A stretch of 64,000 bases of DNA from a virus (IMGVR_UViG_3300037358_000003:37773-101772), one strand, 5' to 3'. Shown: positions 203-15,693, numbered from the stretch's first letter. Translations and numbers: made by a program. Notes: generated from the sequence alone by a model not told the origin.

Positions 203-643
203 ATGTCTGAATACGTGGGCTTTACGACACAGGGTGAAGAAACGTTCCTGCGAGACTGGGCATCCCGAAACAAGTCCATCTATGAAAACGAGGGCAGCTG
301 TGGATTCGGACGTGATTGCGTGGGAATCACCAGCGGTCAGGTGTGGATTGATCTTGGTCCAACGGTCACCAAGCAGTTTGAGGGTGCGTTGGCGTCGGAC
401 ACCTACGAAGACCAAGAGATTGACGGGGACGCTTGGCCACCAGAAGGCGTGGACGACGCGTATCACAAGCACGACTGCTTGGCTGTGCTGGGTCATGGTC
501 CGGCCGCCGTTCATCAACTTTATTTGTGGGTTAAGAATCTGGACTCCCACGGATTTGTGGTGAAGAAGGCAACGCGCTCCACGAAGGACATTTACGACGC
601 CCTGCTGCACGGTGGCGACTACGTTTACTTGGAGAAGGCGTGA
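203..643 (+). CDS. hypothetical phage protein
   Basis: 146-aa ORF with overlapping start/stop coupling to neighbours; begins in a palindrome copy. Confidence 0.75.
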   Translation: MSEYVGFTTQGEETFLRDWASRNKSIYENEGSCGFGRDCVGITSGQVWIDLGPTVTKQFEGALASDTYEDQEIDGDAWPPEGVDDAYHKHDCLAVLGHGPAAVHQLYLWVKNLDSHGFVVKKATRSTKDIYDALLHGGDYVYLEKA

Positions 644-842
644 TGGCCGAAAGTAGCCCTATTCAGACGCCAGCGAAGGACATGCTTGACCTTTGGGATC
701 GCCTGACTACCGCAAGATCAAAACTCAACATGATGGCAGATGATGCTATCTTGGATGGCAGCGAGGATGTTGATCGACTACAGGGTAAGGCCGAGGGTAT
801 TGGACTTGCGTTGTCCTATCTGGATGAGGTGATTCGGGAACG

Positions 843-1226
843 ATGACGAACTTTTTGGTGGAGACGAAAGAAGCCATTAACCACAGCGGACATAAGCCTA
901 CTGACATTGTGTTTATCGGGTCGGTAGATTCTGGCTATAACTGCAATTGGGACCAGTTCGTGAAATTGGCTGGATTTGAGTATGACTCTGGATTTGGCGG
1001 TCAACAGATCGCTTCGGATCTCATCATTGCATTCTCTGACGGTGCCAGCATGAAGCGTGGCGAGTATGACGGGAGCGAGTGGTGGGAGTACGCGATGCCA
1101 TTTGTGATGCCAGAAAAGCAGATCCCGATTGAAACTTTCATGGACCCTGGCGGTGCATCGTGGACGATGCTAGAAGAGATGCACCAGCCTGGCGGCAAGT
1201 ACGGCTGGGACGACGAAGATGACTGA
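843..1226 (+). CDS. conserved-looking phage hypothetical protein
   Basis: YDSGFGGQ...GEYDGSEWW motifs; ATGA coupling. Confidence 0.75.
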   Translation: MTNFLVETKEAINHSGHKPTDIVFIGSVDSGYNCNWDQFVKLAGFEYDSGFGGQQIASDLIIAFSDGASMKRGEYDGSEWWEYAMPFVMPEKQIPIETFMDPGGASWTMLEEMHQPGGKYGWDDEDD

Positions 1227-1666
1227 CGCGAAGGAAAGTACAGCTATTCCTCCAGACGTTTCTGTGAAGTGTCGCACCTGCGGCGAACCGTACGAGGAGC
1301 GGATGAGTCTGATCCACAGAAAGATGCTATGGTTTCCCACCTGCAACCACATTGCTGGCAAGGATTCGGCGGAGATAACGCCCAATGTCTGAGCATCCAT
1401 TCACCAATGACGAATTACGTGGACTGAGAGCATGGTATAAACCCGACCAGACGGGAGCCGCAGCGGTCCGGCAGTCTGACAATGCGGCGCAGGACTTCCC
1501 TATCCTGTTGGATATGGTGGAGTGTTTCCGGTCCCTAGTTGAACAAGCCCTATTCCTGCGGATGTACGGTGAACGCCCACCAGGCGCACCTAAAGATCCA
1601 GCAGGGGAGACATGGCGAGATTGGGACACGCGTGCGGAAGCGGCCCTACGTGGGGACGTTTGACTT

Positions 1667-2323
1667 GTGAAATTATATTATGATCAAAACGGTATAACGA
1701 TTTATCATGGAGATTGCCGCGACATTTTACACAATCTGGACATGGCCGACCTTCTGCTGACTGACCCTCCGTACGGAATTAATAACGGGACACGTTGGCC
1801 AAAACGACAACCCACGCCTTGGAGTAAGGATTATGATCCGATAGTGGGGGATGATCAACCATTCGACCCTACCCACCTGCTGGGAATCGCCCGCCACCAC
1901 GTTATCTTCGGCGGCAATCTTTTTAGCAATAAATTGCCTGAAGCTAGTTGTTGGATTGTATGGGATCAGAAACGAAATCAACATCCAGACTGGAATACGG
2001 CACACGGAGAGATGGCGTGGACGGATTTCGCGTGTGGAATTCGCATTTTCCCGTATCTGTGGGACGGGTACAAGCGTGATGGAGAGGTGGGGCGGCACGT
2101 CCATCCCAACCAAAAGCCTGTGGCCCTGATGGAATGGATCATAACCAGGTGGACCAAGCCTGGAGAATCAATTTTAGACCCCTACATGGGAAGCGGTCCT
2201 GTAGCAAAAGCATGTCAAACGCTTGGACGACGGTATGTGGGTATTGAAGTTGAGGAAGAATACTGTGAAGCCACCATTGAACGACTTGCTCAACCACCCT
2301 TATTTTCACTTGACATTTTGTAG
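1667..2323 (+). CDS. DNA N6-adenine/N4-cytosine methyltransferase (beta class)
   Basis: IYHGDC, TDPPYG catalytic motif, HPNQKP, LDPYMGSG SAM-binding motif. Confidence 0.93.
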   Translation: MKLYYDQNGITIYHGDCRDILHNLDMADLLLTDPPYGINNGTRWPKRQPTPWSKDYDPIVGDDQPFDPTHLLGIARHHVIFGGNLFSNKLPEASCWIVWDQKRNQHPDWNTAHGEMAWTDFACGIRIFPYLWDGYKRDGEVGRHVHPNQKPVALMEWIITRWTKPGESILDPYMGSGPVAKACQTLGRRYVGIEVEEEYCEATIERLAQPPLFSLDIL

Positions 2324-2344
2324 GATCAGGGCCATAATGAATAT
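2310..2344 (+). promoter_or_regulatory. sigma70/SigA-type promoter, leaderless mRNA
   Basis: TTGACA(2310)-N17-CATAAT(2333)-N6-ATG(2345). Confidence 0.8.
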
Positions 2345-13092: not shown

Positions 13093-13470
13093 ATGACCAT
13101 TACAGACATCCCCATCTACCTGCGTAACCCAATTCACCGCCCAGTCCATGAGATCGTTCCGATCCCAGGCCATTCGCGTGACGAGTACGGCTCCGGTCGG
13201 GCCAACTCCATCTGCGGTTGGTGCCACAGAGCGTCCGGCGTCTACAAGGACATTCAGACCTGCATCGACAGACTGGTAGAGCACCACCTGAACGACTGCG
13301 ACGGAGAGCAGGTGCCCAGCGTCATGATCGTGGGTCCGCCCGACTCCCGCAGGTCCGAATTCGCTCCCAACTACGAGATCGTGGACGGTCACGCCTGCCA
13401 CATCAGTTGGTGCAGGGCATTCAACGACTTTTACCCGCACGTCGGGGACGCCTACAACAGCTACGCCTAG
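13093..13470 (+). CDS. leaderless Cys/His-containing hypothetical protein
   Basis: Start reassigned to the ATG at the TSS; followed by a GC-rich hairpin. Confidence 0.75.
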   Translation: MTITDIPIYLRNPIHRPVHEIVPIPGHSRDEYGSGRANSICGWCHRASGVYKDIQTCIDRLVEHHLNDCDGEQVPSVMIVGPPDSRRSEFAPNYEIVDGHACHISWCRAFNDFYPHVGDAYNSYA

Positions 13471-13847
13471 CATTGCCACCACGGTTGGCGTATCGGGGAT
13501 CGTTCCCCCGGCGTGGCACCATGAGTGAAGACAACCCGCCAGTCAGCGACACGCTGGTCAACTTCTGCCAATGCGAACCAGACTCCCACTGGACGACTGG
13601 TTCAGATGGCGGTGATATGCGGACGGATTGTCAATGTCGATGCCTTACCTGTCAGGAATTTTGACGAGATGACGAACATTGATCCTGACTACGTGATCCA
13701 ATTGCAACGCGCAGCTTGGGTTGCTCGTGACTGTTTACGTTCGTACCTCAAATATGGGGATTGGGATGAGCACGCAGATTACGGAACGCAGGCCGCATTT
13801 GATGCCCTGTCTGACGCACTGATACCCGATGACGAAAATGTAGAGAG

Positions 13848-13882
13848 TTGACAACCGTGTCGTGTGAGTATTAAATAGAGAT
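13848..13882 (+). promoter_or_regulatory. promoter, leaderless mRNA
   Basis: TTGACA(13848)-N17-TTAAAT-N6-ATG(13883). Confidence 0.65.
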
Positions 13883-14145
13883 ATGACCAAAACGACCGCC
13901 ACCCCAACATCGCACGACGATGAGTCTCCGTGTCAGCACTGCCAGTTTCCAGTTGAAGCTAACATGGGTCAGGCTGGTGGTCCGTTTCCTTACGTTCACT
14001 CCATGACGGGACAGGCGTTTTGCAAGGACGAGCAGAAGTCCCTGAAAGATGCATTTCCTCCGAAGATTGAAGGCAGATCCCACGGAATGTCCGCCAGCGA
14101 GGTGCGGAAGGCCATTGCGACCAGCGAGCGCGCATACAGGAAAAT

Positions 14146-14514
14146 GTGATGAGTTGGGACGCGTGGCTGACAAAGGATTGCGGCATTCGTCCATGTGACG
14201 AACAATCTCACGTCTTAGGCGATTGGAACTACACCCACAACACCAGCAAAATGATTTACGGGGTGTTGATGCAGACGAACGACTATGACACGACTCCCGG
14301 CCCGTGGTGGAATCTCCTGAATGGCATGAATGGTGCCGAAGGTGGACGCTATCTCGACACCATTATTCGTGGACTAGAGGCCGATCCGCAGAAGTTTGAG
14401 GCGTGGAATCCCGAGAACAAGTGGGGAAGTTACGATGGTTTGTTGGGCGTACTCAGAGAGATGCACAAGGCGTGCATCATCGAACAACCAACGATCTGGG
14501 GTGCCTGTGGATAA
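14146..14514 (+). CDS. conserved-looking phage hypothetical protein
   Basis: NYTHN...LNGMNG...NPENKWGSY. Confidence 0.75.
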   Translation: MMSWDAWLTKDCGIRPCDEQSHVLGDWNYTHNTSKMIYGVLMQTNDYDTTPGPWWNLLNGMNGAEGGRYLDTIIRGLEADPQKFEAWNPENKWGSYDGLLGVLREMHKACIIEQPTIWGACG

Positions 14515-15693
14515 CCCGCGGGAATATCAACCAATTACGACGCACCATCCAGTAGTGTGTGAATCTGGACTGACGTGGAGGGAACTGGCCTCACAGCCCA
14601 AAGACTTGCTAGTGGAAATGACTGACGAGCAAATCGAACAGATCAGGGAGCGGATGGCCGAGAACGCACCGTGTCGGTACGACCGTGACCACGGAGGCCA
14701 TTGGGTTCGCGACCAGCAGGGAACGAACCGTTGGTGTGACGGGATACGTCCACAGGAGGGCCAGTGAGAATCGAATGGTGAATCCCGTGGCCTTACTGCG
14801 TGATATGCGACGACGGGGACTCTCCCTGGTGAGCAAGAACGGACATTTCCGAGGTAAGACCTACATCACATTGGGTGGAGAGAGATGGCAAGGTGTCCAC
14901 TCTCCAGATCGGTGTAGTGGCGACGTTTGTGTTATCCACAATCCGAGCCAGCACCACATGCGTCAGTGGCCCATGCACCTGCGGGATACTGGGTTAATTG
15001 AGCGGATTTGCGAACATGGAGTGGGCCATCCGGACCCCGACAGTTGGCCGTTCTTCGATAGAATGTACGGTCATGAACCCGGCACATGGTCGATTCATGG
15101 ATGTTGCGGTTGCTGTCGTGCCGACTGATGATCCAACCACAGAGGCGATCAACAGAGTTGTGAAGCTGAACGTACTCTGGCACGAGGGTCGTATTCAGGC
15201 GAGCGACTATATCGGCTTGATTGATCTCATCCATACGTGGTGGCGAAAGAGTCTGCGTGACTGACGAACCTGAGTCGTGTCCGGACTGCGGGCATCCGAT
15301 GCAGGATGACGATGGCTGTTCATGGCCATACTGTCCCGATTGCATCGAGGGTGAGTACCCGTGGTGAGTGGTGAGGATATCATCAACGAGTGGTTCTTGT
15401 ACGCCATGACTGGCGACAAGGATGCGACCGTGACGATCTTATTGAAACAACTGCGAGGATCTATGCCAACTGACGATTCCAATCTTGCGCGTGTACTGCG
15501 AGCGTTACTGTCTGCTGGTGACGTGACGATTGAAGCTGTCGAAGCTGGCGGATTGGGTAATCGGCGCACAGGCTACAGACTGACCGTGAACTCATCGGTC
15601 GTCGTGGACGCTCAACATATTCAGGCCATCAAGCACTATGGAATAGTGGAGGGTATGTAACGGATCACCCTTGGGCTTGAAAATCGCCCAGCA

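Follow-up and report, generated by a model that had tools for sequence, protein, structure and literature searches.

An array of two-fold symmetric sites at early gene junctions of a phage lineage, tentatively read as fixed joints of gene replacement

The 64,000-bp stretch of viral DNA analyzed here (the window; IMGVR_UViG_3300037358_000003, bases 37773–101772) is part of a 101,772-bp phage genome with direct terminal repeats from the IMG/VR database (G000). In this genome, the late genes, namely those for the portal, the large terminase (TerL) with a LAGLIDADG intein, tail proteins and glycosyltransferases, are located on the minus strand, and the early region occupies the plus strand at about 27.8–55 kb (window −10,000 to 17,000). 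The early genes are punctuated by copies of a short palindrome, which an earlier reading, made from the sequence alone (hereafter, the sequence-only reading), described as about 17 copies of two 9-bp arms flanking an 8-bp core. The palindrome is confirmed, with the quoted copies all present: the strict 9-8-9 pattern, with up to three mismatches allowed, is matched 9 times, compared with 0.03 matches expected from 100 shuffles. An iterated weight matrix run over the whole genome, an analysis that the sequence-only reading had proposed, yields 27 sites, all between genome positions 26.4 and 57.2 kb, of which 18 are in the window (listed below) and the remaining 9 lie 0.9–11.4 kb upstream of its start. 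The array is restricted to the early region; the claim that the 46-kb structural region is free of copies holds except for a single weak match in the late region (window 43163). For comparison, about 1 Mb of unrelated phage loci contains about 22 weak matches, both strands counted.

The invariant core is narrower than originally described. The consensus is (A)TG-nnn-GAAA(G)-N6-(C)TTTC-nnn-CA, with the half-site TG-nnn-GAAA(G). In G000, the core consists of G3, GAAA (positions 7–10), TT (20–21) and C26, and in the relatives described below, of GAAAG-N6-CTTTC. The information content is symmetric, such that T2 G3 and G7 A8 A9 A10 are mirrored by W19 T20 T21 C/A22 and C26 A27; G3/C26 and A9/T20 are essentially invariant across the copies, positions 11–18 are free, and the unconstrained centre of 6–8 bp differs at each copy. 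Homology between the sites of one genome stops at the 28 bp, with none extending beyond.

The sites are located at gene junctions, as the sequence-only reading stated for all of them, with the exceptions of the copy at 19432, which is internal to an open reading frame (ORF), and a weak, ambiguous copy at genome position 34965. That the sites supply the start codon in frame is the case for only some of them: the ATG at site position 1 opens 7 genes (yielding proteins that begin with MSE-xxx-I/F-x-T/P) and 5 mini-ORFs of 7–15 codons (window 4142, 6147 and 13017; genome 36858 and 26411), about 5 genes start at position 27, the right end of the site (..ACA|TG), so that the site either closes the upstream gene as its final nine codons or forms a mini-ORF, and in 6 genes the start codon lies 3–25 nt upstream of the site. 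The use of the TGA within TCTGAA as the stop codon of the upstream gene is borne out at about 10 G000 sites, in the window at 203, 3883, 4142, 5555 and 13017 and at the variants 1385 and 12658. The sites fit flush against the ends of genes, and nowhere do they interrupt the run of overlapping start and stop codons. The sites and variants in the window, in window coordinates, are the following.

203–230, plus strand: site; position-1 ATG opens a 146-aa gene (MSEYVGFTT...), and TGA 208–210 ends the upstream ORF
643–670, plus strand: site; position-1 ATG opens a 67-aa gene (MAESSPIQT)
1228–1255, plus strand: site, three codons into a 57-aa gene (MTD-AKESTAIPP)
1385–1411, plus strand: variant with a centre 3 nt shorter (ATGTCTGAG...TTCACCA); TGA ends the upstream ORF
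2973–3000, plus strand: site; position-1 ATG opens a 102-aa gene (MSESTDIQT), with AGC as the Ser codon
3283–3310, plus strand: site, three codons into an 85-aa gene with a GTG start
3883–3910, plus strand: site; position-1 ATG opens an 88-aa gene, and TGA ends the upstream 120-aa gene
4142–4169, plus strand: site, a 9-codon mini-ORF that links the upstream stop (TGA 4147–4149) to the ATG of a DNA methyltransferase at 4168 (right-end register)
4806–4833, plus strand: site; position-1 ATG opens a 143-aa gene immediately 3' of the methyltransferase stop
5555–5582, plus strand: site; position-1 ATG opens a 71-aa gene, and TGA ends the upstream ORF
5779–5806, plus strand: site, four codons into a SLOG (YAcAr) gene
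6147–6174, plus strand: site, a 7-codon mini-ORF at an operon end, 21 bp upstream of a promoter −35 box
7103–7130, plus strand: site, eight codons into a second SLOG gene
7488–7515, plus strand: site, one codon past the GTG start of a 70-aa gene (VTTEKPNIQT)
7983–8010, plus strand: site spanning the stop of one gene (TAA, site positions 7–9) and the TTG start of the next
10303–10330, plus strand: site; position-1 ATG opens a 72-aa gene (MSESSGITT)
11978–12680, plus strand: centreless variant ATGnnTGArATCCCArAC (M-x-E-I-P-D/T), which resembles the motif minus its centre, at three successive gene starts (11978, 12279 and 12658)
13017–13055, plus strand: site, a 14-codon mini-ORF at an operon end, followed 1 nt later by the DnaA-box-like GTTGTCCACAG and then a promoter
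14505–14543, plus strand: CTGTGGATAAC, an inverted DnaA-box-like 11-mer, flush with the site at 14516, which lies three codons into an 86-aa gene
19432–19459, plus strand: outlying site, about 67 codons into an isolated 357-aa plus-strand ORF

Relatives that carry the array were found via the conserved Xer-like recombinase (G003) and via a motif scan of IMG/VR (G013). G003 is an 88.6-kb phage with terminal repeats, the recombinase and TerL of which are, respectively, 56% and 78% identical to those of G000. In it, the same motif, ATGTCTGAAAG-N6-CTTTC..., recurs at about 26 sites at gene starts, with the same two registers, the same use of the TGA and mini-ORFs as well; its methyltransferase gene is preceded by the same layout as that at 4142. 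Only about 5 early genes are common to G000 and G003 (methyltransferases, MT-A70, SLOG and one Cys/His-rich ORF). G013, a fragment of 19.6 kb from the early region, contains 10 sites; the sample that yielded it also yielded G004, the recombinase of which is 89% identical to that of G003. Searches with the array genes, the portal and nucleotide similarity produced only distant phages without the motif, and the 117 viral and metagenomic loci with relatives of the protein encoded at 203–643 (at most 48% identity), which served as a specificity control, also lack it. The database of isolated phages yielded no nucleotide match and only remote portal matches, a prophage search of species-representative genomes with the TerL profile and the motif produced single chance matches only, and the TerL-related fragments G008–G010 include no early region.

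Comparison of the closer pair, G013 and G003, shows ordered sites kept, each with its own centre, as 28-bp islands amid replaced genes. About 14 of the approximately 40 early genes are common to the two, at 55–85% amino-acid identity. The best G003 partners of the G013 sites are collinear for 9 of the 10 sites; three 6-bp centres (CTTCGG, CCCAAA and CGCGAA) are identical, compared with 0.34 expected from column shuffles (P = 0.0024), and four more agree at 5 of the 6 positions. Of the 18 flanks of 90 bp beside these nine pairs of sites, 17 are no more alike than random sequences (43–56% identity; random mean 49.7%, 95th percentile 56%) and only one is homologous (81%). The 65-aa ORFs located 3' of the CCCAAA-centred site in the two phages are unrelated apart from the residues encoded by the site. 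At four G013 sites (3461, 5469, 7150 and 8730), the homology to G003 ends 0–9 nt from the site, and the sequence on the other side is unrelated or maps elsewhere. The sites, present in three lineages, are thus conserved amid gene turnover, even as some orthologous junctions have gained or lost a site. Sites also spread locally: adjacent ones in G000 resemble each other in their centres more than expected (3.0 versus 2.24 of 8 positions, P = 0.006; P = 0.10 in G003), and the G003 sites at 88118 and 88438, with a single gene between them, are identical at 27 of the 28 positions.

Selection acts on the site as double-stranded DNA. Within the sites, the Glu codon is GAA in 14 of 14 cases, compared with 44% elsewhere in these genes, and the Ile/Phe codon is ATT/TTT, again in 14 of 14 (45% T-ending elsewhere in these genes); in G003, both synonymous positions are likewise fixed (13 of 13). 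When synonymous codons are reshuffled with the proteins unchanged, 21 sites drop to 8.6, with a maximum of 13, so that there is enrichment over a codon-shuffled background, as the sequence-only reading required. These observations bear on the notion that the conserved element is a peptide, MSE-xxx-I/F-x-T/P, that has a role in the proteins themselves, or else a vestige of common descent of the gene starts. Unrelated proteins do share this N-terminus, and Ser is retained at 2973 despite the change from TCT to AGC; however, the synonymous positions are the most conserved ones, some copies form C-termini, the mini-ORFs of 7–15 codons and the copies with the start codon at the right end encode nothing useful, and the 16 aligned homologues (of 37 matches) of the 203–643 protein all lack the tag. 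The wobble positions and the mini-ORFs refute a peptide tag, which leaves this explanation with virtually no chance of being correct. Very improbable, too, is an RNA element, i.e. a hairpin or a mimic of Shine–Dalgarno pairing that would hide the start codon and enforce translational coupling. The sites do overlap start codons, about 10 of them in G000 and no fewer than 13 in G003 supply the TGA that ends the preceding gene, and GAAAG is complementary to the CUUUC that Gram-positive 16S rRNA carries at its 3' end. Nevertheless, there is no covariation, and the arms within a copy pair no better than arms from different copies (147 Watson–Crick pairs versus 154 ± 6 when the right arms are dealt to other copies), with fewer G-U pairs (18) than A-C pairs (30). 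A10 stands opposite A19 in 12 of the 25 G000 copies, the folding energies are 0 to −5 kcal/mol, often for a fold other than the palindrome, and the sites occur in two registers, with the ATG at one end or the other. These findings largely refute a hairpin, whether of RNA or as a cruciform. A promoter reading of the sites was rejected as well. The two half-sites, each independently close to the consensus, are characteristic of recognition of duplex DNA by a protein with two-fold symmetry, and binding probably involves a dimer.

If a protein binds the sites, it could be simply a regulator. The sequence-only reading had offered a repressor operator array as its alternative, and this is a live, if rather unlikely, rival: a dimeric regulator encoded by the phage, either a repressor or a factor for late shut-off, would bind all the sites and block or silence early transcription, with no role in recombination, and gene ends would have been chosen merely because 26 bp are tolerated there, in the manner of the ESAS, stoperators and SPBRE compared below. 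Such a scheme fits the non-compensating symmetric half-sites, from which the same inference was drawn for the ESAS of cluster K (PMC3203893), the confinement of the array to the early region, and the 5-6-5 core with half-site centres 11 bp apart, which is a classic operator geometry; dispersed operators have been published, one of them bound by a repressor with a recombinase fold (PMC9283540; PMC10516654). It leaves unexplained, however, why the sites retain their order and their own centres when both flanks are replaced and why neighbouring sites are alike. Moreover, no conserved helix-turn-helix regulator is apparent: Pfam searches with about 95 ORFs produced only DUF433 (window 9969–10301) and a weak Lsr2/SAP-like match (genome 26664–27161), both absent from G003 and therefore rejected as lineage-wide binders. 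The best-conserved early ORFan (window 14775–15128, Cys/His-rich) has no match in Pfam or the ESM Atlas. Docking of a replication, partition or nucleoid protein of the phage or the host, possibly together with the host DnaA, seems improbable. A DnaA-box-like motif, GTTRTCCACAG, which presumably matches the actinobacterial DnaA box, is flush (0–1 nt) with four G000 sites and one G003 site, and 4 of the 6 such boxes in G000 adjoin a site (the composites are at window 13045–13055 and 14505–14515, genome 26399 and 29560, and about 822–860 of the G003 locus L140). Yet, the box is present at only 5 of about 53 sites, 27 sites registered with start codons over 30 kb are unlike the layout of an origin or a centromere, and no Rep or ParB gene was found.

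The reading that is tentatively preferred, as possible rather than probable, is that the sites are docking sites for a symmetric protein which serve as fixed joints of gene replacement. Each copy would be a two-fold symmetric docking site on duplex DNA with a free centre. As the genome offers no spare intergenic room, the site would be accommodated within codons, namely the opening nine of one gene, the closing nine of the gene before it or those of a mini-ORF that bridges the two; its flush position against start and stop codons would keep translational coupling intact. Over the course of evolution, the sites would stay in order, each with its own centre, while the neighbouring genes are replaced; their persistence as adjoining genes change suggests that they act as crossover joints, with the crossovers presumably falling within the sites, through which early (accessory) genes are swapped between related phages. 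Two routes could lead to such exchange. One is site-specific exchange by the conserved, catalytically intact recombinase of the lineage, the candidate enzyme; about half of the confidence placed in the joint reading is assigned to this route. The other is short-homology recombination over the approximately 22–25 identical bases of sites with the same centre, in which case the primary role of the sites might be regulatory, resembling that of the PeSL cassettes discussed below. Carried furthest, the recombinase route would amount to phage-borne cassette exchange, with about 27 heterospecific sites at which the late-operon recombinase swaps single early genes between co-infecting relatives, only at matching sites and with order and coupling kept; this elaboration is unlikely.

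The sequence-only reading noted that no recombinase gene is visible in the window and suggested a search of the rest of the genome for a tyrosine recombinase. An intact gene is present 26.6 kb upstream of the window, within the late operon and about 15 kb from the nearest site.

Genome 10308–11138 (L011), minus strand: Xer/Brujita-like tyrosine recombinase, 276 aa, PF00589, with the full R-E-K-H-R-H-Y set
G003 locus L137, about 15367–16212: recombinase gene of G003

The best solved relative of the 276-aa recombinase is gp33, the armless integrase of phage Brujita. The gene is conserved across the array-bearing lineages, and all seven catalytic residues are kept in both G000 and G003. As in the core sites of tyrosine recombinases (lox, FRT and the simple Brujita-type att), inverted arms surround a centre of 6–8 bp, in a genome that encodes a catalytically complete recombinase; the resemblance of the palindrome to a recombinase core, with symmetric arms and a free centre, is upheld. 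The recombinase gene itself is not flanked by the palindrome. It is located between two glycosyltransferase genes in G000 and between orthologues of genome 71168–71722 and 71726–72811 in G003 and G004, and these different neighbours imply that it has moved between junctions of the late operon.

Several observations weigh against the view of the sites as joints of gene exchange. The family to which the recombinase belongs consists of ordinary armless integrases from temperate actinophages; the gene is far from the array, and more distant homologues occur in phages that lack the motif. So far, the array is represented by two full genomes and one fragment, and in G003 and G013 the outer right arm does not mirror the left one, so that the firmly symmetric part is only 5-6-5, a size that also fits an ordinary helix-turn-helix operator. 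G000 and G003 have only two identical centres, a marginal excess (P = 0.05); these two are adjacent and collinear and enclose a methyltransferase gene in one phage and unrelated genes in the other. An orthologous methyltransferase gene lies between sites in both phages, but the centres differ. The sequence-only reading had proposed that the sites are crossover points and that breakpoints of gene gain and loss should fall in them. The order of the sites, their own centres, the replaced neighbours and the homology that ends within a few nucleotides of four sites speak for this proposal; however, synteny breaks are not significantly more common at site-bearing junctions (6 of 6) than at site-free ones (8 of 11), and flush breakpoints could reflect mere selection for whole genes and intact sites. 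Nor did reads or circles joined at sites turn up as that reading had anticipated: the contigs of the three peat-metagenome DNA runs in which the phage occurs, all with the same single clone at low depth, contain no excision circles, deletion joints or indels. No RNA run is listed as containing the phage.

Among the known systems, the array resembles most closely, in its behaviour, the extended start-associated sequences (ESAS) of cluster K mycobacteriophages, which are imperfect inverted repeats at the translation starts of some non-structural genes, with 17-bp arms and a variable spacer of 4–13 bp, located in intergenic regions upstream of the 13-bp start-associated sequence (SAS) and ribosome-binding site, in 7–19 copies per genome, and for which a DNA-binding protein is suspected (PMC3203893; PMC12699233). 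Common to both are inverted repeats at non-structural gene starts, arm departures that do not compensate each other, a better conserved left arm and, in some copies, a last base of the right repeat that is the first base of the start codon. Here, however, the arms are 5–10 bp long, the spacer is fixed, the sites are within coding sequence and there is no SAS. The stoperators of cluster A, which are 13 bp long, asymmetric, orientation-dependent and intergenic, are bound by a monomeric immunity repressor (PMC9283540, PMC5559632). They likewise form a dispersed array at gene boundaries (20 to 36 across the transcribed regions), whereas the present sites are symmetric, 26 bp long and inside coding sequence, and thus do not qualify as stoperators. 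The SPBRE of Bacillus phage SPbeta is bound by MrpR, which has lost 4 of the 7 catalytic residues and does not recombine (PMC10516654). Like the present sites, it is a repeated phage element, and a protein of the tyrosine-recombinase fold is the candidate binder here as well, but this recombinase has lost none of the 7 residues. What sets the array apart from ESAS, stoperators and SPBRE is the fixed spacer, the location within codons and the common N-terminus imposed on the proteins.

The resemblance to integron and pdif arrays and to engineered exchange at heterospecific lox/FRT sites consists in co-directional small genes separated by recombinase-type sites; as with heterospecific lox/FRT, distinct centres would limit exchange to matching sites. 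Nevertheless, of the integron/pdif-like system envisaged in the sequence-only reading, the integron is rejected and membership among the pdif modules is not supported. Beside the array there is neither an IntI-type integrase nor attI or Pc: with TIGR02249, the recombinase reaches 51 bits, far short of the cut-off of 265, and it lies some 15 kb from the nearest site, in the late operon. The sites, at 26–28 bp, are far shorter than attC (57–141 bp) and unfolded, with no pairing of arms within a site. With respect to pdif/dif, an 11-6-11 frame can be drawn, yet the arms are symmetric, whereas dif, a 28-bp site, is expected to have distinct XerC and XerD arms. The PeSL cassettes of T4-type phages, which consist of a promoter plus an RNA stem-loop and are intergenic, reportedly flank small early genes in hyperplastic regions, and modular shuffling is said to have been proposed for them by Arbiol et al. 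in 2010. In contrast, the sites described here are located within codons and include neither a promoter nor a stem-loop.

How phages exchange accessory genes one at a time without damage to the neighbouring genes is an old question, addressed by the modular theory and by "linker" sequences, for which this lineage offers a concrete, testable candidate. The joint, at 26 bp, takes up no intergenic DNA, since the same bases encode the nine codons that open or close a gene; its built-in ATG and TGA codons maintain translational coupling, and it keeps its own centre through the replacement of both neighbours. If a protein, whether a recombinase or a regulator, indeed acts on the sites, this would explain similar unexplained repeats, such as the ESAS, and the sites could provide a set of natural orthogonal sites for engineering. 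Should they be only operators, a regulatory site that dictates how unrelated proteins begin would still be unusual.

The host should be an actinobacterium, judging from the WhiB gene, an Rpf-like transglycosylase domain, the TTGTCCACA boxes and the matches that the recombinase has in Gordonia and Mycobacterium phages. The array includes at least five DNA methyltransferase genes (three N6_N4, MT-A70 and a short C5 type) and three SLOG (YpsA/YAcAr) genes. In addition, the region contains a family of sigma-70-like promoters, TTGACA-N17/18-(G)CGCATAAT, with ATGACC 6–8 nt downstream, a layout which suggests that the first genes behind these promoters (MTTT.., MTKT.., MTIT..) are leaderless or near-leaderless; the search pattern has no match in G003. 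The promoter at 10713 is followed by no ORF but by about 270 nt of G+C-rich non-coding sequence (10713–10990), a candidate small RNA, with no Rfam family at E ≤ 1. The corresponding features, along with those of TerL and of the G003 array region, are the following.

Window 1667–2323, 4168–4806, 5767–6147 and 7078–7488, and L012 14224–17528: methyltransferase and SLOG genes of the array, mostly bounded by the palindrome on both sides
Window 2310, 6196, 10713, 11536 and 13058: sigma-70-like promoters, with a variant at 13848 and one more promoter 227 bp upstream of the window start
L011 13894–16647, minus strand: large terminase, 917 aa, with a LAGLIDADG/Hom_end intein; the TerL of G003 (555 aa) lacks this insert and is 78% identical over the remainder
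L136 (G003) 1696–2799, 9438–10277, 15191–16813 and 16820–17476: genes for, respectively, a DnaN-like sliding clamp, a DUF5131 protein, a Ro60/TROVE protein and a metallophosphatase, also encoded in the array region and none present in the G000 array

Finally, unrelated phages that share the 203–643 protein family (L023/L087, L027/L101, L020 and L035) have short repeats of their own, e.g. CATCCGAAGGAGC in 7–10 copies and TTAGT-N-ACTAA in 6 copies, and lineage-specific short repeats may be common in phages.

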